A DNA stretch of 64,000 nt from Henriciella sp. GTDB taxonomy: Bacteria; Pseudomonadota; Alphaproteobacteria; Caulobacterales; Hyphomonadaceae. Location: contig OZ244132.1 in assembly GCA_965215955.1 (NCBI GenBank), positions 1,452,323 to 1,516,322 on the forward strand, read 5' to 3'. The notes beneath the pieces are model-generated. The model was not told where the DNA came from, made no database searches, and saw only the letters and a program-made list of their open reading frames with translations. Both the position numbers and the translations under genes were made by a program. The number at the start of each line of letters is the position of its first letter. Position 1 is the stretch's first letter. Of the stretch, positions 21,972 through 39,310 are shown piece by piece.

Positions 21972-22090
21972 CACTGCCGCGACGGCATATGAGACAAAGT
22001 GACGTTTACGTTCGCGTTAACTTGCAATCCTTGCTATGGCGCGGCAAAACAAGCTGAAGTCAAACAATCATATTGTTGGGAAGATCCGCC

Positions 22091-23287
22091 ATGAATCTTG
22101 AGTTTTCGCCCGAAGAAATTGCGTTTCGCGCCGAAGTCCGCGCGTTTATTGAGGAAAATTATCCGGAAGAGCTAAAGGAAATCGGCTCCCGCGAAGACCT
22201 GACGCGCGATCAGTTCCTGGCTTGGCATAAAGTGCTTGGCAAAAAGGGCTGGGCAGCTCCGGCATGGCCAGAGAAGTATGGTGGTACGGGGTGGACCTCG
22301 ACCCAGCGTTACATCTGGTCAGAAGAAAACGCCCGCGTCGATGCGATGATGCCGCTGCCTTTCGGCGTCTCAATGGTTGCGCCGGTGATCTACACATTCG
22401 GCAATGAAGAGCAGAAAGAGCGCTACCTGCCGAAAATCCTCTCGGGCGAAGAGTGGTGGTGCCAAGGCTATTCAGAGCCGGGCGCGGGTTCCGACCTCGC
22501 GAGCTTGAAAACAACGGCGGTCCGCGATGGCGACCACTATGTCATCAATGGCCAGAAGACTTGGACGACCCTCGCTCAGCACGCTGACTGGGGCTTCTTC
22601 CTGTGCCGCACCGACCCGACTGCATCGAAGCCACAAGAGGGCATCTCCTTCATCCTGGTCGACATGAACACACCGGGCATCGAAGTGCGCCCAATCATCA
22701 CGATTGATGGCGGCCACGAGGTCAACGAAGTGTGGCTGACGGACGTCCGCGTGCCGGTTGAAAACCGCGTTGGCGAAGAGAACCAAGGCTGGACTTATGC
22801 GAAATTCCTGCTCGCTCACGAGCGGTCCGGGATTGCCGGCGTTGCCCGCTCAAAGCGCGGCGTCGAGCGTCTTCGTAACATCGCTTCAACCGAGTTGATT
22901 GACGGCGAGCCACTGATCAAGGACGACTCGTTTGCCCGCAAGATCAGCCAGCTCGAGATTGATCTGACCGCATTGGAGTTCACTGAGCTGCGTACGCTCG
23001 CTCGGGAATCAGAAGGCAAAGGCCCGGGACCAGAAAGTTCCATTCTCAAAGTCAAAGGGACTGAGATCCAGCAGCGTCTGACTGAGCTCACCTTGGAAGC
23101 CGTCGGGACTTATGGTGCGCCAGACTTCCGCGGCTTCCCAGAAGATGGATCCAACGAGTTTCCGATCGGTCCCGACTATGCTCACCATGCCGGGCCGAAC
23201 TATTTCAATTTCCGCAAGACCTCCATCTATGGTGGGTCGAACGAAATTCAGCGCAACATTATCACGAAAATGATCCTGGGCCTGTAA
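22091..23287 (+). CDS. Acyl-CoA dehydrogenase, PimC-like (large/alpha subunit)
   Basis: WCQGYSEPGAGSDLASL, INGQKTWTT, LAHERSG, TSIYGGSNEIQRNII. Confidence 0.92.
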   Translation: MNLEFSPEEIAFRAEVRAFIEENYPEELKEIGSREDLTRDQFLAWHKVLGKKGWAAPAWPEKYGGTGWTSTQRYIWSEENARVDAMMPLPFGVSMVAPVIYTFGNEEQKERYLPKILSGEEWWCQGYSEPGAGSDLASLKTTAVRDGDHYVINGQKTWTTLAQHADWGFFLCRTDPTASKPQEGISFILVDMNTPGIEVRPIITIDGGHEVNEVWLTDVRVPVENRVGEENQGWTYAKFLLAHERSGIAGVARSKRGVERLRNIASTELIDGEPLIKDDSFARKISQLEIDLTALEFTELRTLARESEGKGPGPESSILKVKGTEIQQRLTELTLEAVGTYGAPDFRGFPEDGSNEFPIGPDYAHHAGPNYFNFRKTSIYGGSNEIQRNIITKMILGL

Positions 23288-23316
23288 GGGCAGCCGGGCA
23301 ACAGGAGGGAATATAG

Positions 23317-24474
23317 ATGGACTTCAATTTCACCGAAGAGCAGACCATGATCCGCGACAGCCTGGCACGGCTGATCCGCGAGCAGTACGATTTCGAGACA
23401 CGCATGGGCGTGGTCAAAAGCGAAAGCGGTTGGCGCCCTGAAATGTGGACTCAATTTGCCGAGCTGGGCCTGCTAATGGCGCCGTTCAGCGAAGAAGATG
23501 GCGGTCTTGGTGGCGGCCCAATCGACTCAATGGTCGTGATGGAAGAGTTCGGTAAAGGCCTCGTGGTTGAGCCTTTCGTGCCTAGCGTGGTTTGCGCAGG
23601 CGGCTTCCTGAAGCATGCAGGCAGCGCGGCACAAAAAGAAGAGCACCTCCAGGCGATTATGGGCGGCGCATCGACCTTTGCGTTTGCCTATGCTGAGCCT
23701 CGCGGCCGCTACAATCTTGCCGATCTCGAAACCAGCGCAAAGAAAGACGGCTCTGGTTATGTGCTGAACGGCCACAAGTCAGTTGTGATTGGTGCACCTT
23801 GGGCGGACAAACTGGTCGTCACTGCGCGGACCGGTGGTGATCGCCGTGATGCTGGCGGCATTTCTGTCTTCATCGTCGACAAAGACGCGGATGGCGTAAC
23901 AACTCGCGACTATCCAACAGTCGATGGTCGCCGTGCTTCAGAAGTGTACTTCGAGAACGTGTCTGTTGGAGCTGATGCTCTGATCGGTGCTGAAGGCGAA
24001 GCCTTACCTCTGATCGAGCAAGTTGCAGACGAAGCGACAGCCGCGATCTGTGCGGAAGCTGTTGGCGCCATGGGCGTCGCGCATCAGATGACGGTCGAGT
24101 ATTCGCGTCAGCGTAAGCAGTTCGGCACGCCAATCGGCAAGTTCCAGGTTCTGCAGCACCGTATGGTCGATATGTTCATGGAGCATGAGCAATCGATCTC
24201 CATGACCTATATGGCGACCCTCAAGCTGGGTGAAGATCCGGTTGAGCGCAAGAAAGCTGCGTCTGCAGCCAAGGTTCGCATCGGACAGTCTGGCCGTTTC
24301 GTTGGCCAAGAGTCGATCCAGATCCATGGCGGCATGGGTATGACGGAAGAGCTTGCTGTCGGGCACTATTTCAAGCGCCTGACCATGATCGATAGCGAGT
24401 TCGGCAATGTCGATCACCATATGCGCCGCTACACTGGGCTGAGCGCAACAGATTTGAAGGCTGCGGCTGAGTAA
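23317..24474 (+). CDS. Acyl-CoA dehydrogenase, PimD-like (small/beta subunit)
   Basis: AFAYAEP, LNGHKSVV, RKQFGTPIGKFQVLQHR, QIHGGMGMTEE. Tandem with the previous gene. Confidence 0.92.
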   Translation: MDFNFTEEQTMIRDSLARLIREQYDFETRMGVVKSESGWRPEMWTQFAELGLLMAPFSEEDGGLGGGPIDSMVVMEEFGKGLVVEPFVPSVVCAGGFLKHAGSAAQKEEHLQAIMGGASTFAFAYAEPRGRYNLADLETSAKKDGSGYVLNGHKSVVIGAPWADKLVVTARTGGDRRDAGGISVFIVDKDADGVTTRDYPTVDGRRASEVYFENVSVGADALIGAEGEALPLIEQVADEATAAICAEAVGAMGVAHQMTVEYSRQRKQFGTPIGKFQVLQHRMVDMFMEHEQSISMTYMATLKLGEDPVERKKAASAAKVRIGQSGRFVGQESIQIHGGMGMTEELAVGHYFKRLTMIDSEFGNVDHHMRRYTGLSATDLKAAAE

Positions 24475-24496
24475 GCTTCACCTTAACTAGACATCG

Positions 24497-24536
24497 ATCC
24501 CTGCTGTGCGGTTCCGTGCGGCAGGGATTTTTGTTT
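24497..24536. terminator. Terminator after the acyl-CoA dehydrogenase pair
   Basis: ATCCCTGCTGTGCG / CGTGCGGCAGGGAT stem (several G-U pairs) followed by TTTTGTTT. Confidence 0.6.
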
Positions 24537-24583
24537 GGGGGAAGGGGTGATTTGAAGTTGATTGAAACGGAGCGGCCTTCGAA

Positions 24584-25153
24584 TCAAAGCGTCCAAGCCA
24601 CTTGCGCGCCGAAGGCAAGCAGCTGCAACGCTGCTAGGGCCGCAAATAATATGCGCCACCTCAGGCGCGTGAAGCGCCACCACAGAACACCCGTCGCGAT
24701 CAAGGCGCTCACCGTTTCAATTGCGCCGCCAATCAATCCATTCTGAGCGGGATCCCAATACGAGACGGGCGAGGCAAATCGCCAATCGCTAAGCGGCCAG
24801 AAATGCCTGTGCGCGTCATCGGCATGAAGCGGAAAGTCGAGTGCAATGTGGAGCAGGGCGGCACCGGCGAACACGGCCCAAAGATTCCATTTCTGCCAGG
24901 CGGCGATCGCTAAAAGGGCGCCGAATAAAACGAATGAGTTCGAGGCGGCACCGAACGTCTGCCAAGGTTCGGTCCAGTATTGAACGTTCCAGGTCTCATC
25001 GCCGCTCCATCCTTGCAGACGGCTCCAGGCGAAGAAGACGAACATGGACGCATCCGGGATGAAAGCGCCGCCAATCACCATCCAATTTCGTTTTGGAGCG
25101 TCCTTGCGGGCAAGCGCCGCGGAAGCAATCACCATGTGAGCGATCGTGTTCAT
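24584..25153 (-). CDS. YdjM/DUF457-like membrane metal-dependent hydrolase homolog (likely start 25153)
   Basis: MNTIAH, GAFIPD and LLHIALDFPLHADDAHRHFWPLSDW (conserved His/Asp) with multiple TM segments. Confidence 0.65.
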   Translation of the reverse strand: MNTIAHMVIASAALARKDAPKRNWMVIGGAFIPDASMFVFFAWSRLQGWSGDETWNVQYWTEPWQTFGAASNSFVLFGALLAIAAWQKWNLWAVFAGAALLHIALDFPLHADDAHRHFWPLSDWRFASPVSYWDPAQNGLIGGAIETVSALIATGVLWWRFTRLRWRILFAALAALQLLAFGAQVAWTL

Positions 25154-25245
25154 ACACTCAAACCGCACAGGACTTGCCGCGAAGCAAGTGGTGACACCGC
25201 TCTTCTCGTCTGTAAAAGCAGACCAAAGTTTCCAAGGAGCCCTCA

Positions 25246-26043
25246 ATGTCTGTCATCAAACTCGAAAAGAATGGACCGATCGCAACTCTAACGCTGACAC
25301 GGCCGGAGATGATGAATGCACTTGGCCAGGAAGGCGATGGCGCTGCAGTGGCCGAGGCTTGCGCAGAGATTGAAGCAGATCCAGCGATCCGTGTTGCGAT
25401 CCTAACCGGAGAGGGCCGCGCTTTTTCTGCGGGCGGGGATGTCAAAGCGATGCGCGATCGCACCGGCGCGTTTGCTGGCTCGCCATATAGCGTCCGCGAG
25501 GGTTATCGCCGCAATATCCATCGCATCGTAAAATCGCTCTACAATCTCGAGACGCCCCTGATCGCTGCGGTGAACGGCGCTGCGATTGGGTTGGGCTGCG
25601 ATGTTGCCTGCATGGCAGATGTCCGGATTGCGTCCGATAAAGCGAAATTTGGCGTGACTTTCCTGAAGCTCGGCCTGATCCCCGGTGATGGCGGGGCCTG
25701 GCTCTTGCCGCGCATTATCGGAGCCAGCCGCGCTGCCGAGCTTCTGTTTACGGGTGACGTCATCGATGCAGCGACCGCTGCCGATTGGGGGCTTATTTCT
25801 CGCGCGGTGCCAGGCGAAACCCTGATGGACGAAGCGATGGCGCTTGCGACGCGAATGGCGGGCCAGCCTCCACAGAGCTTGCGCGTCGCCAAAACCTTGC
25901 TGCGCCACGGCACGACCTCCAGCTATGACACGATCATGGAAATGTCGGCGGCAGCTCAGTCGATGATGCACCACACTGAGGATCACATTGAAGGGGTCAA
26001 TGCGATCCTCGAGAAGCGGACGCCAAGCTTCGAAGGTAAGTGA
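25246..26043 (+). CDS. Enoyl-CoA hydratase/isomerase (crotonase) family
   Basis: LTLTRPEMMNAL, GRAFSAGGD, IAAVNGAAIGLG, GLIPGDGG. Confidence 0.93.
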   Translation: MSVIKLEKNGPIATLTLTRPEMMNALGQEGDGAAVAEACAEIEADPAIRVAILTGEGRAFSAGGDVKAMRDRTGAFAGSPYSVREGYRRNIHRIVKSLYNLETPLIAAVNGAAIGLGCDVACMADVRIASDKAKFGVTFLKLGLIPGDGGAWLLPRIIGASRAAELLFTGDVIDAATAADWGLISRAVPGETLMDEAMALATRMAGQPPQSLRVAKTLLRHGTTSSYDTIMEMSAAAQSMMHHTEDHIEGVNAILEKRTPSFEGK

Positions 26044-26463
26044 TTATAGCGCTTGTGAAATGATCAGGGCGGATAAGATAAAGCCGCCGAGATAGGTGCC
26101 GAGCGCGCCGATCGCTTTCAAAATGTGCGGCTTTTCGAGCGTCTTGCAGATCAAAAAGCCGAGCGCGTGGATGAAGCGTGAAACGGTCACGGCGATGATT
26201 GTCCAAGTGACCAGGCCGCCCAGGTCGCGACCGGTATAAGCGAAGCCTGTGACCAGAAATAAAGCGATGAGCAGGCCGGCATATTCGGCTGAATTGCCAT
26301 GCGCGCGCTGCGCTTTCGCCATCGCTGATGTCGGCTCCAGCGGTGCGCCATAGGCGATTGTGTTGCTCGATCCGCGCTGGACGCTGGTCCAGAAGGCGAG
26401 CAGCAGGGTCAGGATCGCAAGCGCGGCGGAGCAGATTAGAATTGTTGTGTGCATCTCGTACAA
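26044..26463 (-). CDS. MAPEG family membrane protein
   Basis: AQRAHGNSAEY motif, SRFIHALG, four TM helices. Confidence 0.85.
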   Translation of the reverse strand: MYEMHTTILICSAALAILTLLLAFWTSVQRGSSNTIAYGAPLEPTSAMAKAQRAHGNSAEYAGLLIALFLVTGFAYTGRDLGGLVTWTIIAVTVSRFIHALGFLICKTLEKPHILKAIGALGTYLGGFILSALIISQAL

Positions 26464-26641
26464 CCTCCCGTAATATCAAGGCAGTGTAGTGTGCTTCGGC
26501 AGATCCTCAAAGAAGGGCGTGGTCTGATGGACATTTCGCCTTTGAGCCCAGATGCCCGCAATTGCGGCAGTCCGAGTAGAAAAGGCAGATTGTGGAGTTT
26601 TACCTACTGACTTTCGGCCATCTCGCATTATCTGCAGCAGC

Positions 26642-28075
26642 ATGCGCTTAATTCGCTCTCCATTGTCCGGCCCGCTGGCGGCCCTTGCCGTCGCAAGCTG
26701 CGCCACGGTTCCTCCAGCACCAGAAGCGCCGGAACCGCTGACCCCAAGTGAGAATTTTACAGCGGTGAACAGCGCGCTCATCTCCCAGGCGCCGGTTGAG
26801 AGTGATTGGTGGGTAAGCTTCTCCGATCCATTGCTCACCGAACTGGTCAATCAAGCGCTGACGGAAAACAAGAGCATCGCGGTTGCCGAGGCAAACATCT
26901 CCGCCGCCAGAGCGGTCCTTGCGAGACAGTCGCTGGGAAGGTCTTTTTCGTCCAGCACGGCCGCCAGCGCAGACCTTGGTCGAGCAGCGCGCGAGGGCGC
27001 GAACACCGAGTTTAGCGCCGATGGGCAATTGGGAGCGAGCTGGGAATATGATGCTTTTGGCCGGATTGAGTCGCAAATCGAAAGCGCTACGTTTCGGGTT
27101 GAACAGCTAGATCAACTTCGCCGCGACGTGGCGGTCACGGTCGCGGCCAATACGGCTTTGGCTTATGTGGATTATCGCGGCAATCAAGTGCGCCTTGCGG
27201 TGGCGCAGCGAAATGCCGAGCTTCAAGGCGAAAGCGTCGAATTGTTGCGCGTCTTGTTTGAAAACGGACGGGCCACGCGCCTCGATGTCGAGCGCGCCGA
27301 GTCGCAATATCGAACGACCTTGGCTTCGTTGCCGCTTCTAGAGATCAATATTCGAACCGCGGCGACCCAATTGGCGGTGTTGACCGGACGAGCTGATTTG
27401 CAGATTGATGAAACCACGTTGAACTCGGAAGGCGGATCAGCAACCATTCCGGTCCCGCCGGATACATTGACGGTTGGCCGGCCTGAAGACCTGATCCGCC
27501 GCCGTCCAGATATTCGCGCTGTTGAAGCAGATATCGCGCGATTGCTGGCGCTCGGAGATGTCGAGCGTGCGAGATTGTTTCCAACTTTAACGTTCAATGC
27601 GAACCTGTTTGCCTTGTTCACCGAAGACAGCACGTTGGATAACAGTTTTGGCTTCGGAATTGGACCAACATTGCGTTGGGACGGGCCTGACTTGCGCCGC
27701 GTTCGGGCCGACATAGACATTGCCGACGCTCAGACGCAAGTCGCGTTCGCAACGTATGAAAACACGGTCATTGAAGCTTTGGGCGAGGTAGAAATCGCCC
27801 TCATCTCCTATGTGCAAGAGCGTGCACGTCGGGGCGACCTGGAAGCCGCCGCGGCATCAGCTGAACGCGCGCTCGAGCTCGCGAGATTGCGATTTGACGA
27901 GGGGTTGGATGATTTCCTAGATGTGATCGACGCCCAACGCACGCTTCTCGACGCCCAAGATCGCCTAGAAATAAGTCGGCTGGCCACAACCAGACAAGCG
28001 ATTGCTGCGTACAGAGCTCTAGGGGGCATTTGGCGGGACGCAATGGTCGTAGATGCGACATCAGAAAGTGAGTGA
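26642..28075 (+). CDS. RND efflux outer-membrane factor (NodT/OprM-like lipoprotein; likely start 26642)
   Basis: Lipobox LAVASC, WWVSFSDPLLTELV, WEYDAFGR, LIRRRPDIRAVE, YRALGGIW. Confidence 0.93.
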   Translation: MRLIRSPLSGPLAALAVASCATVPPAPEAPEPLTPSENFTAVNSALISQAPVESDWWVSFSDPLLTELVNQALTENKSIAVAEANISAARAVLARQSLGRSFSSSTAASADLGRAAREGANTEFSADGQLGASWEYDAFGRIESQIESATFRVEQLDQLRRDVAVTVAANTALAYVDYRGNQVRLAVAQRNAELQGESVELLRVLFENGRATRLDVERAESQYRTTLASLPLLEINIRTAATQLAVLTGRADLQIDETTLNSEGGSATIPVPPDTLTVGRPEDLIRRRPDIRAVEADIARLLALGDVERARLFPTLTFNANLFALFTEDSTLDNSFGFGIGPTLRWDGPDLRRVRADIDIADAQTQVAFATYENTVIEALGEVEIALISYVQERARRGDLEAAAASAERALELARLRFDEGLDDFLDVIDAQRTLLDAQDRLEISRLATTRQAIAAYRALGGIWRDAMVVDATSESE

Positions 28076-28082
28076 GTTCAGT

Positions 28083-29180
28083 ATGTTGAGAATTACGGCA
28101 TTGGCCTTTTTGATCGCGCTCCTCTCGGTTTCTCCGGCCTTTGCGCAACGCGGCGGTCCAGCGAGCGTGTTTGCCGATCCGGTGATCGAGCGTGAATTCT
28201 CAAGAGACATCGAAGCGCTCGGCACGCTTGAGCCGAATGAGCAGGTCGATCTCTCGCTCAATGCCTCGGACCGCATCACAGCTCTGTATTTCGATGATGG
28301 TGAGCGCGTCCGCCGGGGCAAGACGCTTTTATCATTGGCGCAGAGAGAACAATTGGCCTTGGTTGAGTCGGCTGAAGCGAATGTCGAGGAAGCGGCGCGT
28401 CAGTTAGAACGTGTGGTGCGGTTGGCCGACGCTGAGGCCGTTTCCCAGTCTGAGCTTGATCGGGCGCAGCGAGACCTTGATGCTGCGGATGCCAACCTGC
28501 GGGCCCTACAATCGCGGCAAAAGGATCGCGTCCTCGTCGCACCGTTTGACGGCGTACTAGGCTTTCGGCGAGTGAGTGTCGGCTCTTTCGTGCGACCCGG
28601 CGATGTCGTGGCGACCTTGATTGACGACAGCGAAATGAACCTGGACTTTGATGTCCCGTCGATCTTCACTCGATCCATTCAGCCCGGCACAGCGATCATC
28701 GCGGAGACAGACGATCTACCCGGAGAAGTCTTCGAAGGCGTAATTGAGACTCTAGACAATCGCATCGATCCGGTGACGCGCGCTATTCGGGCGCGCGCAA
28801 AGATTCCAAATGCGGACAGATTGCTCCGATCCGGCATGTTCATGCGTGTGACCGTCACCGCCGACCCGCGCACCAGTCTGGCCATTCCCGAGGCGGCGGT
28901 ACAGCCGGTCGGCCCGAAAACCTTCGTCTGGCGTGTGTCGACGGAGGACGGGGTTCCAAAAGCACGACGTGTTGAGGTTGAACTCGGACAGCGCGCGGAT
29001 GGCTTCATCGAAGTCGTCTCCGGTTTGTCGCCGGATGACAAGGTGATATCCGAAGGCATTATTCGCGTGCGAGAAGGCTCAGAAGTGAAGCTGAGAGAGC
29101 GGACCATCCTTTCCCCTGAGGGCACTTTGGCGGGACGTGGGCGCGGCAGCGCGAACGGTACTGCAGGCGCAGCGAACTAA
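28083..29180 (+). CDS. RND efflux periplasmic adaptor (membrane fusion protein; likely start 28083)
   Basis: Lipoyl-like FDDGERVRRG, APFDGVLG, IDPVTRAIRARA, GMFMRV, VVSGLSPDDKVISEG. Confidence 0.93.
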   Translation: MLRITALAFLIALLSVSPAFAQRGGPASVFADPVIEREFSRDIEALGTLEPNEQVDLSLNASDRITALYFDDGERVRRGKTLLSLAQREQLALVESAEANVEEAARQLERVVRLADAEAVSQSELDRAQRDLDAADANLRALQSRQKDRVLVAPFDGVLGFRRVSVGSFVRPGDVVATLIDDSEMNLDFDVPSIFTRSIQPGTAIIAETDDLPGEVFEGVIETLDNRIDPVTRAIRARAKIPNADRLLRSGMFMRVTVTADPRTSLAIPEAAVQPVGPKTFVWRVSTEDGVPKARRVEVELGQRADGFIEVVSGLSPDDKVISEGIIRVREGSEVKLRERTILSPEGTLAGRGRGSANGTAGAAN

Positions 29181-29192
29181 AGGGGCGGGGCG

Positions 29193-32100
29193 ATGCTATT
29201 ATCTGATACTGCCGTCAAGCGACCAGTATTCGCATCTGTGATCGCCTTGATCCTGGTTATTTTGGGGGTCGTGTCGTTCGACCGGCTCAGTCTCCGCGAA
29301 TATCCGGATATTGATGCTCCGATCGTGACCATTGATACGCGCTACCCTGGTGCCTCAGCCAGCGTCGTTGAAACCCGAATTACCCAAATCGTCGAAGATC
29401 GTATCGCAGGGGTTGAGGGGATCCGGTTCATAAACTCGAATTCGAGTGACGGGCGTTCGCGGATCTCTATCGAGTTTGGCGTCAACCAGGATATCGATGT
29501 CGCCGCAAATGATATCCGCGACCGCATTTCCGGCGTGCTGGATAACCTGCCTGAAGACGCCGATCCGCCCGAGGTTGAGAAGGCGGACTCGAATGATGAT
29601 GTCATCATTTGGCTGAATCTCGCGGCCGAAAACATGACGACGCCGGAAATCTCCGACTATGCGCAGCGTTATCTGGTTGATCGCTTCTCGGCCTTGGACG
29701 GGGTGGCCCGCGTGCGTGTCGGAGGATCGAGGGACTATGCCCTGCGCATCTGGATTGACCGGCGATCCTTGGCGGCCCGAAACCTGACCGTCACCGACAT
29801 TGAGCAGGCCTTACGGCGAGAGAATATCGAGGCGCCCGCCGGCAGCATCGAGTCGGATACACGCGCCTACACGGTTCGGATCGACCGCGCGTTCCAAACC
29901 CCAAAAGACTTTGCAGGGCTTGTCGTTGCAGAAGGGGAAGATGGCTATCTCGTTCGATTGGGCGATGTTGCGCGCGTTGAGCGAGGCACGGTCGAAGACC
30001 GGAACATGTTCCGCGGCAATGGCGTGCCGATGGTCGGGCTGGGCATCGTCAAACAGTCGACCGCGAACACAGTGGATGTGGCAAATGCCGCCAAAGCGCT
30101 CGCGGAACAATTGAATCAAACCTTGCCGGACGGCATGGTCATTGCGCGCAGCTTTGATAGCTCCGTCTTCATTTCGGCTTCCATCCGTGAGGTTTACACG
30201 ACCCTGGCGATCGCGGTCGGGTTGGTCACCCTGGTGATCTTCCTGTTTCTCGGAAGCGCCCGTGCCACGATCATCCCGGCGATTACGGTGCCGATTTCGA
30301 TTATCGCAACCTTCATCGTGCTGTTTGCCTTGGGGTTCTCAATCAACCTTCTGACACTACTCGCCATGGTGCTGGCGATCGGTCTGGTTGTCGACGATGC
30401 GATCGTTGTGCTTGAGAACATATCGCGGCGTATGAAAGAGTATGGAGAAACCCCGCTCGTGGCTGCGTTTAAAGGGACACGGCAGGTCGGCTTCGCGGTC
30501 ATCGCCACGACTTTGGTGCTCGTGTCTGTGTTTGTGCCGATTACGTTCCTGCAGGGCGATGTCGGTCGTCTGTTTACCGAATTCGCACTGACGATCGCTG
30601 CGGCCGTTGTGTTCTCCAGTTTGCTGGCGCTGACGCTGACGCCGATGATGGCGTCGAAGCTCTTGAAACCCCATAGCGATAAGTGGACGATTGGTTCATT
30701 CTTGCCGCGTCTGGTCGACAAAGCTTTTGGCCTTGTTCGCATGGCGTATGGCTGGCTGCTCAACATCCTCATTCCGCGACCAATCTTTATGGCGATCCTG
30801 CTTGGCGGCTTGTTCTGGTCGACTTGGGATCTGTCCCAACGCGTCACGGAAGAATATGTGCCTCGCGAAGATCGCGGCGCCTTCTTCGTTGTGATCCGAG
30901 GGCCTGAAGGCGCCTCCTATGCTTATATGGAACGATACATCGACGAAATTGAGCGTCGCTTGATGCCTTACACCGAAAGCCAGGATGGCAAGCCGCCGGA
31001 AGTGAACCGGCTTCTGTTTCGGGCGCCAGGCTTCGGGTCATCTGCATTCAACCAGGCTTTCATCATCGTTGTTCTGAATGATTGGAGTGAGCGGCGGCCT
31101 GCTGATGTCATCATAGCCGAAGCCAATCGCGCGCTCTCAGATTTACCAGGCGTTCGAGGGTTCGCCCGAATGCGGCAAGGCTTGGGAGGTGGAACGGGAA
31201 AACCGGTCCAATTCGTTCTCGGCGGTCCGAGCTATGAGCTGCTGACGGAATGGCGCGAGACGTTCGTCAACGCGCTGGAAGACAGCGATATCGGATTGGT
31301 CGATATCGATTGGGACTATAAGGAAACCCAGCCGCAATATCGTATCCAGGTGGACTATGATCGCGCTGCCGACCTTGGGGTTACGGTCGCCGATATCGGC
31401 TCAACCTTGCAAACGATGCTGGGGTCGCGGCGTGTGACCACATATATCGATGGCGGCGAAGAATATGATGTCATTTTGGAGGGTCTGCGCTCTGATCAGA
31501 ACAATCCGAATGATGTTGAGAATATTTATGTCCGTTCGTCGCGTTCAGGCAGTCTTGTTCCGCTCTCAAGTCTGATGAGTATTGAAGCGATTGCGGATAG
31601 TCCGACACTGAATCGCTACAATCGGGTGCGCGCGATTACGATTGAAGCGGGCCTCGCTGAGGGCGCGTCGCTTGGTGATGTCCTGGACCAGATGCAGACA
31701 ATCGCGCGAGATGTCTTACCGGTTGAGGCGACGATTGATTTCAAGGGCCAATCCCTGGATTTCAAAACCTCGGGCTCATCGATCATGTTCGTTTTTGCGA
31801 TTGGCCTCGCGATTGTATTCCTCGTTCTGGCAGCGCAGTTTGAGAGCTACCGACACCCGATCATTATCATGCTGTGTGTGCCGGCGACGCTAGCAGGTGG
31901 CTTGCTCGGGCTCTGGCTGACCGGCAACAGTCTCAACATCTACACCCAGATCGGCTTGATCATGTTGGTGGGTCTCGCGGCGAAGAACGGTATTTTGATC
32001 GTCGAGTTTGCCAACCAGTTGCGCGATCAGGGAACCGAGTTTCAAGAGGCTTTGAAAGAGGCGTCATTGGCCAGGCTGCGGCCGATCGTGATGACCGGCC

Positions 32101-32330
32101 TAACGACCGCAGCAGGGACATTGCCGCTTATCCTATCCAGCGGCGCTGGCGCAGAGACGCGGGCGGCCATTGGCGTGGTTATCCTGTTTGGCGTAATCGC
32201 GGCGGTTCTGGTCACGGTGCTGTTTGTGCCGACCGCTTATGCTCTGATTGCAAGAGGCTCTGGATCACCGGGCGATGTTGCGCGACAACTCGATGCTGAA
32301 TCAGCAGAAAACGCGGTACCAGCAGAATGA
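29193..32330 (+). CDS. RND efflux permease (AcrB/MexW-like, 1045 aa)
   Basis: Proton-relay motifs GLVVDDAIVVLEN, GLAAKNGILIVEF and RLRPIVMT; 12-TM architecture. Confidence 0.96.
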   Translation: MLLSDTAVKRPVFASVIALILVILGVVSFDRLSLREYPDIDAPIVTIDTRYPGASASVVETRITQIVEDRIAGVEGIRFINSNSSDGRSRISIEFGVNQDIDVAANDIRDRISGVLDNLPEDADPPEVEKADSNDDVIIWLNLAAENMTTPEISDYAQRYLVDRFSALDGVARVRVGGSRDYALRIWIDRRSLAARNLTVTDIEQALRRENIEAPAGSIESDTRAYTVRIDRAFQTPKDFAGLVVAEGEDGYLVRLGDVARVERGTVEDRNMFRGNGVPMVGLGIVKQSTANTVDVANAAKALAEQLNQTLPDGMVIARSFDSSVFISASIREVYTTLAIAVGLVTLVIFLFLGSARATIIPAITVPISIIATFIVLFALGFSINLLTLLAMVLAIGLVVDDAIVVLENISRRMKEYGETPLVAAFKGTRQVGFAVIATTLVLVSVFVPITFLQGDVGRLFTEFALTIAAAVVFSSLLALTLTPMMASKLLKPHSDKWTIGSFLPRLVDKAFGLVRMAYGWLLNILIPRPIFMAILLGGLFWSTWDLSQRVTEEYVPREDRGAFFVVIRGPEGASYAYMERYIDEIERRLMPYTESQDGKPPEVNRLLFRAPGFGSSAFNQAFIIVVLNDWSERRPADVIIAEANRALSDLPGVRGFARMRQGLGGGTGKPVQFVLGGPSYELLTEWRETFVNALEDSDIGLVDIDWDYKETQPQYRIQVDYDRAADLGVTVADIGSTLQTMLGSRRVTTYIDGGEEYDVILEGLRSDQNNPNDVENIYVRSSRSGSLVPLSSLMSIEAIADSPTLNRYNRVRAITIEAGLAEGASLGDVLDQMQTIARDVLPVEATIDFKGQSLDFKTSGSSIMFVFAIGLAIVFLVLAAQFESYRHPIIIMLCVPATLAGGLLGLWLTGNSLNIYTQIGLIMLVGLAAKNGILIVEFANQLRDQGTEFQEALKEASLARLRPIVMTGLTTAAGTLPLILSSGAGAETRAAIGVVILFGVIAAVLVTVLFVPTAYALIARGSGSPGDVARQLDAESAENAVPAE

Positions 32331-32938
32331 AACTTCCGATCGATGTGTCGAAAATCAAAGGCTTTTTAGACCCGGCTGAAGGGGAAGCCTTATACAAGGT
32401 TGCGCTCGCGGAGGCCTCCCATGGGCCCTGCCTGGAGATTGGCGGCTATTGTGGAAAATCATCAGTCTATATCGGGACCGCGTGCCAAGAGCGGGATGAG
32501 CTTCATTTCTCAATCGACCACCATCGCGGCTCTGAAGAGAATCAGCCGGGATGGGAGTATTTCGACGAAGAGGTGTGGGATGCGGACGCCGAAGCCGTCG
32601 ACACGCTGCCTTTCTTCCGGCGTACCATCCACCAAGCTGGACTTGAAGGCACGGTCATTCCAATCATCGGCCGGTCCATCGACATTGCAACGCGTTGGGC
32701 GACGCCGCTGAGCTTCCTGTTCATTGATGGCGGACACACGATGGAACACGCGTTGAATGATTATCGCGGTTGGACGCCGCACATCATGCCTGGCGGCGTA
32801 CTCGCCATCCATGATGTGTTTCCAGATCCAGCCGATGGCGGTCGACCACCTTTTGAGATCTACCAACGCGCCTTGGCGTCAGATCTCTATGTCGAAGAGC
32901 AAGCGGTTAAGAGCTTGCGGATATTGCGGCGGGTTTAA
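32327..32938 (+). CDS. Class I SAM-dependent methyltransferase (Methyltransf_24-like; candidate MeT3-like sugar O-methyltransferase)
   Basis: KGFLDPAEG, CLEIGGYCGKS, IDHHRGSEENQPGWEY, LFIDGGHT, LAIHDVF. ATGA overlap with the RND permease stop. Confidence 0.85.
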   Translation: MKLPIDVSKIKGFLDPAEGEALYKVALAEASHGPCLEIGGYCGKSSVYIGTACQERDELHFSIDHHRGSEENQPGWEYFDEEVWDADAEAVDTLPFFRRTIHQAGLEGTVIPIIGRSIDIATRWATPLSFLFIDGGHTMEHALNDYRGWTPHIMPGGVLAIHDVFPDPADGGRPPFEIYQRALASDLYVEEQAVKSLRILRRV

Positions 32939-33992
32939 GCAGCGACCGGGTGAGGACCTGGCTCGTCGCTGATGTGCCTTGCAAGGCGTCGGCGGCCAGA
33001 ATGACAGCGGCTTGTGTCCAGCTTGGCTGCTCTTTCGGCCAGTAAATGTCTTCGTCTATTTGGTGCCCCATCCAAAACACACCGCGATCGTCGCGAATGT
33101 TCAAAACGGTTTGCAATAGCGTTGTTGCCAGTCCTGTCTTGCTGGCTGACAGGAGCGCCAGGACCAATTCAGCGGTTTCTGCGACCGTTACCCATGGCTC
33201 GTTCGAAACGCAGCGGCAGCCATGTGCTTCAATGACGAACTTGTCCCAAGACTGGTCCAATCTCTGCGCGCCAGTGGCGTCATCAAAGACACCCGCCAGG
33301 ACGGGATAGTACCAATCCATGGCGAACCTTGCGCCAGTTTGCCGCCGGTCGAACAGCTCTGGAGAGGTCTGAAGCGCATTCAGGAGGTTGGAACGCGCCG
33401 TGTGCCAGGTGGGTTTTGCGATATCGAATGCGTTGGCCAAAAACAGCCCGCATTCGAGGCTTTTCAGAATAGAGGCATTGCCCGCAAGCAACGCGTCGTC
33501 TTCATCTGTTCCAACGGCTTCAACGGCCCAGGTAATCGTGCCATCTGGCTTTTGAAGCGTGAGGACAAAATCGAGCGCGTGCTCCACCATGGGCCACCAC
33601 GCTTGCACGCGCTTCGTGTCATCGGTGGCCTTCAAAAAATGCGCGATGCCAACGGCTGGATAGGCGCAAAAGTTTGAATCCAAGAAAGCCGGGGCTGGTT
33701 CGCGGCTGATAAAGTCGCGGTCCACCATGGGCAGGCAATTGCCATACTCCCCAAACCAGGCACCATCGCCGCGTTGTGTCTCTTTCAAATGATCAAAGGC
33801 ATTTGCGGCGGCGTTGAGCTCGCCGGCAACCGTAAGCGCCATTGCGCTTTCGGTGTGGTTCCATGGATCCCAAGGGCCGTTCTCGAACCAGGCAATCGCG
33901 CCATCCGCGGTCTGGATGTCGAGTATACGATCGATCGCAGGACGGAGGTCAGCGATGGAGAGTGCCTCGCCAGATGGAAAAGACCCGTCCAT
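32907..33992 (-). CDS. (alpha/alpha)6-barrel protein usually annotated as prenyltransferase; candidate MmpH-like glycoside hydrolase (likely start 33992)
   Basis: Repeated QxxDGxW-like motifs (QTADGAIAW, QRGDGAW, QKPDGTITW), DPWNHTESAMAL, DSNFCAY, FAMDWYYPVLAG, PWVTVAETAE, EQPSWTQAAVILA. The ATG lies 1 nt after the upstream TAG. Confidence 0.7.
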   Translation of the reverse strand: MDGSFPSGEALSIADLRPAIDRILDIQTADGAIAWFENGPWDPWNHTESAMALTVAGELNAAANAFDHLKETQRGDGAWFGEYGNCLPMVDRDFISREPAPAFLDSNFCAYPAVGIAHFLKATDDTKRVQAWWPMVEHALDFVLTLQKPDGTITWAVEAVGTDEDDALLAGNASILKSLECGLFLANAFDIAKPTWHTARSNLLNALQTSPELFDRRQTGARFAMDWYYPVLAGVFDDATGAQRLDQSWDKFVIEAHGCRCVSNEPWVTVAETAELVLALLSASKTGLATTLLQTVLNIRDDRGVFWMGHQIDEDIYWPKEQPSWTQAAVILAADALQGTSATSQVLTRSLLKPAAISASS

Positions 33993-33993
33993 C

Positions 33994-34719
33994 CTAGCTT
34001 TCACCTTCTTCAAAATACATGACCAGGCTCTTACCCATGAAGGGTGATGTGACGGTGTCGAGGGCGCGTGTGATCCACGGACGCTTCATCAGATCCCAGA
34101 CCAGGAAGTCATGATAGGCTTTGACCATCGGATGATCATCGCGCCGCTCCCAGAACATGCATTTCAGCCACCATAGAGGCGAGTGAATGCCGTGCGCGTG
34201 GTGGCGCTTGAACATCTTGAAGCCGCGGCGCTCAACCGATGCTTTGAGATCGACTTCGTCGAAGATCCGGATATGGCCGCCCGGCTGATACGGGTAGCCG
34301 TTTGGTGGCGGCGCGAGTTGCCAGCAGATCCGCTCTGGCCAGGCATGAGGCACCGTGATGCAAAGCTTGCCGGTCGGTTTCAAAACGCGCCGCATCTCAC
34401 GAATTGCCGTGTCATAGTCGGGAAGATGCTCGAGCACTTCAGAACAAATCACGGCGTCAAACGTATTGTCTTCAAAGCGCAGCGCGGTCGCATCGCCCGT
34501 CTCAAACGTGGTTTTTGTTGCTATGTCGGTGTCTGCATTCGGAAGAAATACGAGACCTTCCTCCGCCTTTTTGAGCGAGGGCTCATCGAGGTCGACGCCG
34601 TAAATGTCGAGCCCGCCCAGCATGTACAGGCCATGCACATGGCGCCCCTCACCACAGCCCAGATCGAGGACTTTGTCGCCAGGCGACAGGCCGAGATGTT
34701 TCAGTCGAGCGGTTAGCAT
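33994..34719 (-). CDS. Class I SAM-dependent methyltransferase (Methyltransf_11-like; candidate MeT1-like)
   Basis: MLT...VLDLGCGEGRH, GDATAL, SEVLEH, WPERICW, GGHIRI, HHAHGIHSPLWWLKC, LVWDLMKRP, GKSLVMY. Confidence 0.85.
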   Translation of the reverse strand: MLTARLKHLGLSPGDKVLDLGCGEGRHVHGLYMLGGLDIYGVDLDEPSLKKAEEGLVFLPNADTDIATKTTFETGDATALRFEDNTFDAVICSEVLEHLPDYDTAIREMRRVLKPTGKLCITVPHAWPERICWQLAPPPNGYPYQPGGHIRIFDEVDLKASVERRGFKMFKRHHAHGIHSPLWWLKCMFWERRDDHPMVKAYHDFLVWDLMKRPWITRALDTVTSPFMGKSLVMYFEEGES

Positions 34720-36008
34720 TGGGCCACCATGGCGTTACGGAAAAAGTCTATATATTTCGGGGCAATACTGTCCCAGTTGAAGTGCGCGTTGGCGCGCTTC
34801 AGGCAAGCTTCGGCAACCTCGGAACGGCGTTCGCGATTCGAGGCAAGACCGTCAATTGCATCGGCGAGTGCGTTGGGATCGCCCTTCGGCACAATGATGC
34901 CAGCGTCGCCCGCAACTTCCGGCAAGGCCCCACCATCGGTCACGATAACCGGTGTGCCACAGCTCATGGCTTCGGCGGCGGGCAGGCCAAACCCTTCATA
35001 AAGAGAGGGGGTCACTGCGACGGTCGCGCTGCGAAACTCGTTGGCGAGCTCTTCGCGTGTGAGGTCGCTCTTAAAGACGACGCGATCTTTCAGACCAAGA
35101 TCAAGGATTGCCCTCCGCGCCTGACCTTTGCGGAGCTTTCCGATCACCACGAGTTCCAGGTCCGGATGCGTGTTTAGAAGTTTGTGATAGGCCTCTACCA
35201 AAATATGGAGCCCCTTCAGCGGGGTATCTGCACTGGCGGTGGTGACGATTTTACCAGGCGCAACTTGGATATTCGGATCGGGGCTAAAAGCCTGCTGATC
35301 AACGCCAAGCGAGATTGGGTGAATGCGCTCGGGGGCCACGCCAAACTCGCTCACAATATCCGCTTTTGCATGCTCGGATGGACACGTGATGGCGGGCAAG
35401 GTTCGAGCGACTTTGATCTGCATTTTGATGAAGGAATACCAGCGCCGGGCGAGCCAGCGATGTTTCCAATCTGTAGCCGCTTCAACAGCTAGCTTGAGAT
35501 CACGGGTGATAGGATGGTGAATGATCGTCGTCAGTGGGAGACCAAGTCGAGCGTGAACGCGTCCAATCCCATGCGCCAGCGTTTGATTGTCCAGGATCAC
35601 ATCATACTTCGCGCGATGGCGTTTCAGATATTGATAGGCGCGCTGGCCAAACGCGAAGGGTTCAACAAATTTGCCAGAGAGATGGCCGAAATACTCATAC
35701 GTATCGGTCGGGCTGAGCAAGTGTTTCGGGCGCAGCGCAAAATGGCCATGATGCGGCTTCGAGAACAGGTCGAGCGATGGCAGTTTGACCAGGTTCACGT
35801 CGGCGCTTAGCTCGGGATAGGGCGGGCCTGAAACGACGTCGACAAGCGCACCAGCTTTCACCAAAGCTTGGCTCAAATAGTCGACATAGACCCCTTGGCC
35901 GCCAACTTTTGGATCGGACCGATAAGACAATATGCAGATGCGCAGCGGCGCACCCTGCGCAGGCAGGTCCGCGCCTTTTTCTTGGCTCTGCTTGGTAACA
36001 TCCAGCAT
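34713..36008 (-). CDS. GT4 glycosyltransferase (candidate ManT-like alpha-1,4-glycosyltransferase)
   Basis: LRICILSYRSDPKVGGQGVY, VSGPPYP, LPSLDLF, DNQTL, TIIHHPITRD, ASADTPLKG, PSLYEGFGLPAAEAMSCGTPV (EX7E). 7-bp overlap with the downstream methyltransferase. Confidence 0.9.
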   Translation of the reverse strand: MLDVTKQSQEKGADLPAQGAPLRICILSYRSDPKVGGQGVYVDYLSQALVKAGALVDVVSGPPYPELSADVNLVKLPSLDLFSKPHHGHFALRPKHLLSPTDTYEYFGHLSGKFVEPFAFGQRAYQYLKRHRAKYDVILDNQTLAHGIGRVHARLGLPLTTIIHHPITRDLKLAVEAATDWKHRWLARRWYSFIKMQIKVARTLPAITCPSEHAKADIVSEFGVAPERIHPISLGVDQQAFSPDPNIQVAPGKIVTTASADTPLKGLHILVEAYHKLLNTHPDLELVVIGKLRKGQARRAILDLGLKDRVVFKSDLTREELANEFRSATVAVTPSLYEGFGLPAAEAMSCGTPVIVTDGGALPEVAGDAGIIVPKGDPNALADAIDGLASNRERRSEVAEACLKRANAHFNWDSIAPKYIDFFRNAMVAQC

Positions 36009-36050
36009 GAAGATTATGCGGTCCCTGTCTTTCGTCTCTCGCTATCCACA

Positions 36051-36070
36051 ATTGGCACCGCGAGTGCAAT
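36051..36070. promoter_or_regulatory. Imperfect palindrome / sigma54-like element upstream of the GT4 operon
   Basis: ATTGGCAC-CGCGA-GTGCAAT. It also fits GG-N10-GC (GG 36054-36055, GC 36066-36067) on the + strand. Confidence 0.35.
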
Positions 36071-36262
36071 CAATAGATGCGAGAAATGCCTGCTAAAAAA
36101 TCGCCCAGCCGCCAAGATTTGCGGCAGCTCTGGTCGCGAAAGCGTGTTTTTCAGATCGGTTTCTATGGGCATCGGTTTGGCTAGCGGGCATGATTGATTT
36201 GCAGTTCCCTTGACTTCCCTAGCGTCTGTCCACCGACCGGATGCAAAAAGTGAGGAAACACC

Positions 36263-37267
36263 ATGAAAGTAGCAGCCGTCAAAAAGCCTGGAGGCCCCGG
36301 TAATCTCATCATCGAAGACCGCCCAGATCCTGTCGCCGGACCGGGCGAAGTCTTGGTGCGCATTCGCGCCTCTTCTCTCAATTATCATGACTTTGTGGTC
36401 GTGATGGGCGGCATCCCAACCGACGATGGACGGATCCCGATGTCAGACGGTGCGGGGGACGTGGTTGCGGTTGGCGATGGCGTCACAAAATTCAAACCCG
36501 GTGACAAAGTCCTCAGCCTGTTCTTCCCAGACTGGCAGAAGGGTGAGATTGATGCGCTTGGCTTTGGCGGTGTTCCCGGCGATGGTGCTGACGGATTTGC
36601 GGCCGAGCTCGTTGCGATGCCAGAAAGCGCGTTCACGCGTATGCCTGAGGGCTATTCCTATACAGAAGCGGCAACATTGCCCTGCGCGGCGCTGACCGCC
36701 TGGCGCGGCATGTTTGTTGAAGGCTCCGTAAAGCCTGGCGATTGGGTGCTGACGCAAGGTACGGGCGGCGTCTCTGTTTTTGCGCTTCAACTCGCCAAAG
36801 CGGCTGGAGCTCGGGTGATCTCGACCTCATCCTCAAATGAAAAGCTTGAGCGGATGAAGGCTTTGGGCGCTGATCATGTGATCAACTACAAAGAGACCCC
36901 GGAATGGGGAAAGAAAGCCCTCGAACTGACGCGTGGACGCGGAGTGGATGAAGTTGTCGAGATTGGCGGGCCTGGGACGATGGCACAGTCGATCCAAGCT
37001 TGCCGTGTGGGCGGCCATATCTCGCTGATCGGTGTGCTAACGGGTGTTTCAGGCGAAGTTCCAACCGCGGCTTTCTTTTCGAAGAATTTGACCATGTCAG
37101 GGATCACGGTCGGTTCAGCCGAGCATCAGGAAGATATGATCGCGGCCATTGAAGCTTCGAATATCAAGCCTGTTCTCGACAAGGATTTTCCGCTCGATGA
37201 AATCGCTGAAGCGTTCGCGCACCAAGCGAGCCAGCAGCATTTCGGCAAAATCACGCTTTCAATCTAG
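36263..37267 (+). CDS. NAD(P)-dependent medium-chain dehydrogenase/reductase (quinone-reductase-like)
   Basis: EVLVRIRASSLNYHD, PMSDGAG, EAATLPCAALTAW, GTGGVS, QHFGKITL. Confidence 0.9.
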   Translation: MKVAAVKKPGGPGNLIIEDRPDPVAGPGEVLVRIRASSLNYHDFVVVMGGIPTDDGRIPMSDGAGDVVAVGDGVTKFKPGDKVLSLFFPDWQKGEIDALGFGGVPGDGADGFAAELVAMPESAFTRMPEGYSYTEAATLPCAALTAWRGMFVEGSVKPGDWVLTQGTGGVSVFALQLAKAAGARVISTSSSNEKLERMKALGADHVINYKETPEWGKKALELTRGRGVDEVVEIGGPGTMAQSIQACRVGGHISLIGVLTGVSGEVPTAAFFSKNLTMSGITVGSAEHQEDMIAAIEASNIKPVLDKDFPLDEIAEAFAHQASQQHFGKITLSI

Positions 37268-37366
37268 TCTCGCGAGGATACGGAGGCGTGCGGCTGACTT
37301 TACGTCGGCGGCCAAATCCGCATTGTAGAAAACAGAATTGATCACGCGCTCAACGGAGCAATTTAC

Positions 37367-39310
37367 ATGACAGACTCAGCTATCTATCCCGTCCCTGCCG
37401 ATTTTGCCTCGAAGGCCAATCTGACGCCAGAAAAGTATCGTGAGATGTATGCAGCCTCGATAGCTGATCCGGAAGCGTTCTGGGGCGAGCATGGCAAACG
37501 CTTGGATTGGTCAAAGCCTTACACGATGGTCAAAGATGTATCGTGGGATAAGTCTGATCTGCATGTGCGCTGGTTCAGCGATGGCGAGCTGAATGTCTCT
37601 TACAATTGCATCGACCGACATCTCGCAACCCGCGGTGACAAAGTTGCTCTGATCTGGGAGGGCGATGATCCGGCCGACGACGCCGAGGTCACTTACAATC
37701 AGCTACACAGCGCCGTCTGTCGGTTCGCGAATGTGCTGAAAGACATGGGCGTCAAAAAGGGTGATCGCGTCACCATCTATATGCCGATGATCCTGGAAGC
37801 GGCCTATGCGATGCTGGCCTGTGCGCGGATTGGCGCAGTGCACTCGATTGTGTTTGGCGGCTTTTCACCTGAGGCGCTGGCCGGCCGGATCACGGATTGC
37901 GACAGCCAGTTCATGATCACCGCCGATGAAGGCATTCGCGGCGGACGGATTGTGCCGCTGAAGAAGAATGCGGACGCGGCCTGCGAGCTTGCGGGCGGGA
38001 TGGTCGAAAAAGTCCTCGTCGTGAAACGCACCGGCAATTCGGTGAACATGCAAGACGGCCGCGATATCTGGCTGCACGAAGCTGGCGCAGATGTCAGCAG
38101 CGATTGTCCGCCTGAGCCGATGAACGCGGAAGACCCACTCTTCATCCTGTATACGTCCGGCTCGACCGGCAAACCGAAAGGCGTTCTGCACACCACCGGC
38201 GGGTATCTGGTCTGGGCGTCGATGACGCATGAATATGTCTTCGATCTGAAAGAAGACGATGTCTATTGGTGCTCGGCCGATGTCGGCTGGGTCACTGGGC
38301 ACAGCTATATCGTCTATGGCCCGCTCGCCAATGGCGCGACCAGTATGATGTTTGAAGGCGTGCCGACCTATCCGGACGCAAGCCGCTTCTGGCAGGCTTG
38401 CGATAAGCATCGCGTCACCATTTTCTACACCGCGCCGACCGCGATCCGCGCCCTGATGCGTGAGGGTGAGGGGCCGGTGAAATCCACCAGCCGGTCGACC
38501 ATCCGTCTGCTTGGCTCGGTCGGTGAGCCGATCAACCCGGAGGCTTGGGAATGGTATTACAAGACCGTCGGCGATAGCCGCTGCCCGATCGTCGACACCT
38601 ATTGGCAAACTGAGACAGGGGCTTGCATGATGGTGCCATTGCCAGGGGCCACGGATCAAAAACCTGGCGCGGCGAGCCATCCTTTCTTTGGGATCGAACC
38701 GAAACTGGTTGATGCTGAGGGTGCAGAGCTCACCGGCGCAACCGAAGGCAATCTGATCATCACCAATAGTTGGCCGGGCCAGATGCGGACCGTCTATGGC
38801 GACCATCAGCGCTTCATCGATACCTATTTCTCAACCTATCCCGGGGCTTACTTCACCGGCGATGGCTGTCGCCGCGATGAAGATGGGTTCTACTGGATCA
38901 CAGGCCGTGTGGATGACGTGATCAATGTCTCGGGCCACCGCATGGGCACTGCGGAAGTGGAAAGCTCGCTGGTCGCGCATGATGCCGTCGCAGAGGCCGC
39001 CGTGGTCGGCTATCCGCACGAGATCAAAGGACAGGGCATCTATGCCTATGTCACCCCGGTCGCGGGCATTGAAGCGGATGATGAGCTGAAAAAGAGCCTC
39101 GTCCAGCACGTACGCACTGAGATTGGCCCAATCGCCAGCCCGGACCTGATCCAGTTCGCCACCGGACTACCGAAAACGCGGTCCGGCAAAATCATGCGCC
39201 GCATCTTGCGCAAGATTGCTGAGGACAGTTTCGAAAATCTCGGCGATACATCCACACTCGCCGAACCTGAAGTCGTTCAAGATCTCATCGATAACCGGCA
39301 GAACCGATAG
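37367..39310 (+). CDS. acs: Acetyl-CoA synthetase (AMP-forming)
   Basis: [68 protein letters not shown]. Confidence 0.97.

Follow-up and report, generated by a model that had tools for sequence, protein, structure and literature searches.

Here we analyse a 64,000-nucleotide stretch of the genome of Henriciella sp. (assembly GCA_965215955.1, contig OZ244132.1, positions 1,452,323 to 1,516,322; hereafter the window), in which the operon for a tripartite RND efflux pump runs, through a shared start and stop codon, into meT1, a methyltransferase gene of the kind found among the mycobacterial genes for methylmannose polysaccharide (MMP). Our results make it probable that two independent and separately conserved modules were joined by a rearrangement in the common ancestry of this species and its closest relative, and that the pump has no part in the MMP pathway. 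One module would be an ordinary HAE1-type tripartite efflux operon, in the order outer membrane factor (OMF), membrane fusion protein (MFP) and RND permease. The other would be an MMP gene set of mycobacterial type, with manT-pmeT3-mmpH on one strand and meT1 convergent to it. The rearrangement would have removed all of the former upstream region of meT1, whose start now lies on the RND stop codon. The features concerned are as follows, in window coordinates.

26464 to 26641, no strand: intergenic region between the divergent OMF and MAPEG genes, presumed to contain the pump promoter
26642 to 28075, plus strand: OMF gene, encoding a NodT-family outer membrane lipoprotein (PF02321, 1.1e-35; TIGR01845, 235 bits, above its cutoff)
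28053 to 29180, plus strand: MFP gene, encoding the periplasmic adaptor (HlyD_D23; TIGR01730 RND_mfp, 231 bits)
29193 to 32330, plus strand: HAE1-type RND permease gene, 1045 amino acids (ACR_tran, 960 bits; RND_permease_2, 1062 bits)
32327 to 32330, plus strand: ATGA overlap of the RND stop and the meT1 start, found also in the closest relative
32327 to 32938, plus strand: meT1, Methyltransf_24, 203 amino acids, predicted orthologue of the MMP-type 1-O-methyltransferase
32907 to 32938, no strand: convergent 3' ends of meT1 and mmpH, overlapping by 32 nucleotides
32907 to 34013, minus strand: MmpH-type endo-mannosidase homologue, 368 amino acids, start codon uncertain (7QSJ, MmpH, E 2.9e-70)
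33994 to 34719, minus strand: Methyltransf_11 methyltransferase, the pMeT3 candidate (Pfam; position between manT and mmpH)
34713 to 36008, minus strand: ManT-type GT4 alpha-(1->4)-mannosyltransferase homologue (7QSG, E 4.5e-84; Pfam GT4)

The initial annotation had called the last gene of the plus-strand array MeT3-like, a label that our comparisons do not bear out. Among solved structures, the product of 32327-32938 has one match only, 6G7D/6G80/6H40 (phmmer E 6.8e-58), and its residues 8-202 align without gaps to residues 15-209 of the 6G7D chain, 195 residues in all, at 47-48% identity. An AlphaFold2 model of the protein (pLDDT 88.5) is matched by Foldseek to 6G7D/6G80 (TM-score 0.90, root-mean-square deviation 1.7-1.8 A, E about 1e-26), which the entry titles name as MeT1 from Mycobacterium hassiacum; the runner-up family, made up of catechol/CCoA-type O-methyltransferases and TrmR, reaches E 2e-10 at 12-18% identity, which sets the protein clearly apart from other cation-dependent O-methyltransferases. 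The gene adjoins manT, pmeT3 and mmpH in a convergent layout and has a single match in its own genome. On its sequence and modelled fold, the product is a MeT1 orthologue, predicted to be the 1-O-methyltransferase that caps the reducing end. We rejected its assignment as pMeT3, since it is of the Methyltransf_24 type and is encoded outside mmpH, not between manT and mmpH. The candidate for pMeT3 is instead the product of 33994-34719, with which no pMeT3 entry among the solved structures could be compared.

The structure matched by the GT4 protein, 7QSG, is presumably ManT of M. hassiacum, and its file title reads 'D-inositol 3-phosphate glycosyltransferase'. Work by Ripoll-Rozada from 2019 is said to be a source on the mycobacterial MMP gene cluster, alongside Maranha 2023. 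In M. hassiacum the genes follow one another as ManT (MHAS_04402), pMeT3 (04403), MmpH (04404) and MeT1 (04405) (Maranha et al. 2023, PMC9883506), and this genome has four full-length homologues in an identical gene order. The Henriciella locus differs from the mycobacterial cluster in its alphaproteobacterial host, where the product is predicted from the genes alone, and in the ATGA that ties meT1 to the end of an RND operon, an arrangement seen in 0 of 94 other loci examined. That Proteobacteria carry an MMP-type gene set is, in our view, of more interest than its linkage to a pump.

That linkage, whose conservation in related genomes the initial annotation had put forward as a check, proved not to be conserved. 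Forty relatives were compared and the methyltransferase was found in 16, around 15 of which up to 20 kb was fetched; the RND gene is adjacent to meT1 in 2 of the 16 gene carriers, namely this genome (G000) and its closest relative (G001). The MeT1 and RND proteins of G001 are 93% and 96% identical to those studied here, and its pump lies upstream of meT1 with the same ATGA overlap. Beside meT1, and converging on it, the set of GT4, Methyltransf_11 and MmpH genes is present in 14 of the 15 relatives' loci, and in those other than G001 the upstream genes are unrelated. A profile scan with one genome per species gave at least 588 MeT1 relatives, and in the best 80 of these loci, which come from Alphaproteobacteria, Gammaproteobacteria, Desulfobacterales (Deltaproteobacteria), Actinomycetota and Chloroflexota (a Dehalococcoidia), not one RND pump lies upstream of meT1; most of the 80 share the layout in which meT1 faces mmpH-pmeT3-manT. 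The unit conserved across phyla is therefore meT1 converging on mmpH-pmeT3-manT. What stands upstream of meT1 varies by lineage and may be a GtrA-like, FtsK, short-chain dehydrogenase (nine loci), acyl-CoA dehydrogenase (two Henriciella species) or P450 gene (another Henriciella species), and the pump is one more such lineage-specific partner.

Pump and MMP genes also occur independently of each other. RND orthologues that are 89-92% identical are found in eight other Henriciella species, where they form a three-gene unit with OMF and MFP that ends in ...VPAE-TAA/TAG and is followed by differing, unrelated DNA. Across genomes G000 to G015, both modules are present in eight, the pump only in three, MeT1 only in two and neither in three. 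G006 and G011 possess the pump and are without MeT1 and MmpH; G002 and G005 (OZ243114.1, Henriciella sp.) possess the MMP genes, and their RND paralogues are only 35-40% identical. G003, G004, G007, G008, G009 and G012 hold both modules apart, with 130 kb of the same contig between pump and meT1 in G009. The presence of MeT1 and that of MmpH, on the other hand, coincide in 26 of 26 genomes compared.

Gene order in Henriciella is strongly scrambled, such that the pump operon, the MMP module and a quinone oxidoreductase gene (36263-37267, orthologues 86-95% identical) have different neighbours in nearly every species examined. When loci L113-L126 and L019-L029 were compared with window positions 20000-42000, only G001 was collinear with the window. 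A search for an empty site showing which module had moved found none: from one examined species to the next, pump operon, MMP module and quinone oxidoreductase gene all have different flanks. There is no Rfam match in 24000-38000 and no tRNA gene in the window, and hence no sign of a mobile element.

The junction itself can be read to the nucleotide. It has the sequence ...GCA GAA TGA, with the meT1 ATG at 32327-32329, and the two genes lie in different frames, which excludes a fusion protein. An alignment with eight orthologues identifies ...VPAE as the ancestral end of the permease, and both G000 and G001 have kept these last residues together with the ancestral first residues of MeT1 (MKLP...); what has changed is that the spacer is lost and that the RND stop is now the TGA within ATGA. 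Between these two genomes, synonymous divergence (dS) amounts to 0.9 in meT1 and reaches 1.4-2.4 in the genes beside it, and meT1, with an omega of 0.034, is under purifying selection. Given the near-saturated dS and the low omega, the arrangement is old and meT1 is still functional within it. The overlap alone is unremarkable, because overlaps of this kind are common in the genome: in a crude set of open reading frames, about 201 of 1,630 neighbouring pairs on one strand (about 12%) could have a 4-nucleotide overlap of start and stop.

With respect to the array as a whole, the initial annotation described the region correctly. Family matches and coordinates agree with four co-oriented genes for OMF, MFP, RND permease and methyltransferase, the ATGA at 32327-32330 is plain from the sequence, permease and methyltransferase leave no space for a terminator, and the named neighbours, which span about 16.5 kb to 42.3 kb of the window, include no TetR/AcrR gene. 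The four genes thus have the features of one operon, being on one strand, with no terminator and with overlapping start and stop.

With its former upstream region gone and its start on the RND stop, meT1 is most likely transcribed from the pump promoter, and in this lineage both co-transcription and translational coupling with the pump are probable. On the most economical reading, its translation would depend on termination and reinitiation at the shared codons. MeT1 would still cap 3-O-methylmannosides at their reducing end, as part of a cytoplasmic MMP-like pathway. Capture of the methyltransferase under the pump promoter, with 3-O-methylation regulated separately from chain synthesis as the result, had been raised in the initial annotation. 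Capture fits as a lineage-specific event, but the enzyme is the predicted 1-O-methyltransferase MeT1 and not a 3-O-methyltransferase, and its transcription apart from the genes of chain synthesis is ancestral, as meT1 is convergent in nearly every lineage sampled, and so does not result from the capture. The locus would represent a dated and exact case of operon accretion that has made a cytoplasmic glycan-capping enzyme dependent on an efflux operon, and the linked genomes G000/G001 and unlinked ones such as G009 form a natural genotype pair for the control of meT1.

Three points weigh against joining by rearrangement as we have described it. The wider context of meT1 was read in the best 80 of at least 588 loci. 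In addition, an MMP-like product in Proteobacteria is a prediction from the genes, and our literature search returned no report of MMP-type polysaccharides in this group. Finally, the retention of a junction with no spacer through near-saturated synonymous divergence could reflect selection for coupling instead of neutrality.

The same junction, exact across a dS of about 1, also speaks for the view that the capture was itself selected, which we regard as possible but doubtful. According to this view, meT1, without a promoter of its own and as the last efflux cistron, would be induced with efflux under hydrophobic or envelope stress, tying to the inducers of the pump the reducing-end capping that commits MmpH-cut fragments to daughter polymers, and antisense read-through would modulate mmpH-pmeT3-manT. 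Consistent with such read-through, no plus-strand terminator-like site is present in 32938-36000, and meT1 and mmpH overlap at their 3' ends not only here but across phyla, in 38 of 68 loci (overlaps of 4 to 72 nucleotides, with ends no more than 44 nucleotides apart in 13 more; counted over window positions 32907-32938 and loci L018-L031 and L033-L111). As a result, the RNAs of the two units must also overlap, and this suggests that an antisense or shared-terminator relationship has been conserved. A proposed role of MMP in buffering fatty acyl-CoA (PMC9883506) also speaks for this view, and if selection were responsible, a cytoplasmic lipid-buffering glycan would have been rewired in nature to a stress regulon. 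However, the arrangement is confined to one small clade, overlaps of this kind can arise at the roughly one in eight co-oriented pairs noted above, and the position of meT1 behind many unrelated genes in other lineages fits neutral accretion.

It is unlikely that meT1 is instead expressed independently, from a promoter within the 3' part of the RND gene, such that the overlap would create no regulatory link to the pump. There is a sigma-70-like match inside the RND gene at 31840-31867, and in several relatives meT1 is clearly expressed alone, beside a divergent upstream gene. Promoter-like matches in the region are nevertheless rarer than in shuffled sequence (2 found, 4.1 expected), and synonymous-site identity between G000 and G001 over the last 450 nucleotides of the RND gene, at 0.3-0.7 against a gene mean of 0.53, is not raised in this comparison of two sequences, which has low power. 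Moreover, no Shine-Dalgarno-like sequence before the meT1 ATG is conserved.

Export by the RND pump of the methylated glycan, or of a lipid that the glycan chaperones, is very improbable and is refuted by the lack of conservation of the linkage, a ground that the initial annotation had itself named. Pump and methyltransferase are also distributed independently. Only co-orientation and the ATGA overlap speak for export at this locus, besides the position of meT1 after a GtrA-like membrane protein in some Actinomycetota, which makes a membrane connection of the pathway possible in some lineages. Tempting as the conclusion is, the overlap does not make the RND pump an exporter of a mycobacterial-type methylmannose polymer. 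Family searches gave no match to secretion-related families for any of the four MMP proteins, and by eye neither MeT1 nor MmpH begins with anything like a signal peptide. The substrates known for HAE1 pumps are small amphiphiles taken up from the periplasm or the outer leaflet of the inner membrane, as opposed to glycans of about 2 kDa in the cytoplasm. In agreement with the cytoplasmic location assumed from the start, MMP has been described as residing inside the cell, where the polymer sequesters cytoplasmic acyl-CoA (PMC9883506).

Returning to the pump, its three proteins identify it as an HAE1-type tripartite system, with an ACR_tran permease of the 12-transmembrane type, an MFP and an OMF lipoprotein encoded in one operon. 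The permease matches AcrB/MexB-class entries in the PDB at E about 1e-160, and every score of the pump against NCBIfam equivalogs is below cutoff. It resembles the AcrAB-TolC/MexAB-OprM class in its full-length ACR_tran permease, RND_mfp adaptor and NodT-type OMF lipoprotein, and differs from that class in the order OMF-MFP-RND, in having no adjacent TetR/AcrR regulator and in an unrelated fourth cistron, meT1, added in this lineage only. For the OMF gene, the longest open reading frame opens at 26552. We prefer the start at 26642, as initially annotated, which gives MRLIRSPLSGPLAALAVASC and includes the lipobox LAVASC; the lengths of the orthologues (473-484 amino acids) agree with it. A scan for the sigma-70 consensus found no match in 26464-26641. 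This presumed promoter region of 178 bp is common to the pump operon and to the divergent gene for a MAPEG-family membrane protein (26044-26463, minus strand; PF01124, 5.9e-14).

Upstream of the pump, the neighbouring genes encode AlgH-like, redoxin, Band 7, MlaC, aspartyl protease and CobT proteins, two acyl-CoA dehydrogenases, a YdjM-like protein, an enoyl-CoA hydratase and the MAPEG protein; downstream, the MMP genes are followed by those for the quinone oxidoreductase, Acs, an MFS transporter and an amylase. Genes of acyl-CoA metabolism surround the MMP module (22073-26043 and 36263-39310), including large and small subunits of a pimeloyl-CoA dehydrogenase-like enzyme, enoyl-CoA hydratase, an acryloyl-CoA-reductase-like oxidoreductase and acetyl-CoA synthetase, which fits the proposed acyl-CoA-buffering role of MMP. 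In G018 and G005 (L019 and L029), an acyl-CoA dehydrogenase gene ends 16-24 nucleotides before meT1.

Some features of the wider meT1 loci deserve mention. In 12 loci of Acidimicrobiia and other actinobacteria (L064, L067, L075, L076, L085, L088, L091, L095, L096, L100, L102 and L108), meT1 is preceded on its own strand by the gene for a GtrA/DPMS-type membrane protein (PF04138, 5.9e-15), directly adjacent in nine, and seven loci, namely five of the 12 together with L107 and L108, have an acyl-CoA thioesterase gene further upstream on the opposite strand. FtsK is encoded directly upstream of meT1 in 12 Desulfobacterales loci, and in the Desulfobacterales loci L053, L063, L068, L069, L072, L073, L074 and L087 meT1 converges on pmeT3-manT and no MmpH homologue intervenes. 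In the Dehalococcoidia locus L065, meT1 and MmpH are followed by two tandem GT4 copies, and a Methyltransf_11 gene was not detected. Within Henriciella, MmpH is the fastest-evolving gene of the block, with only 78% identity between G000 and G001 as compared with 87-98% for its neighbours.

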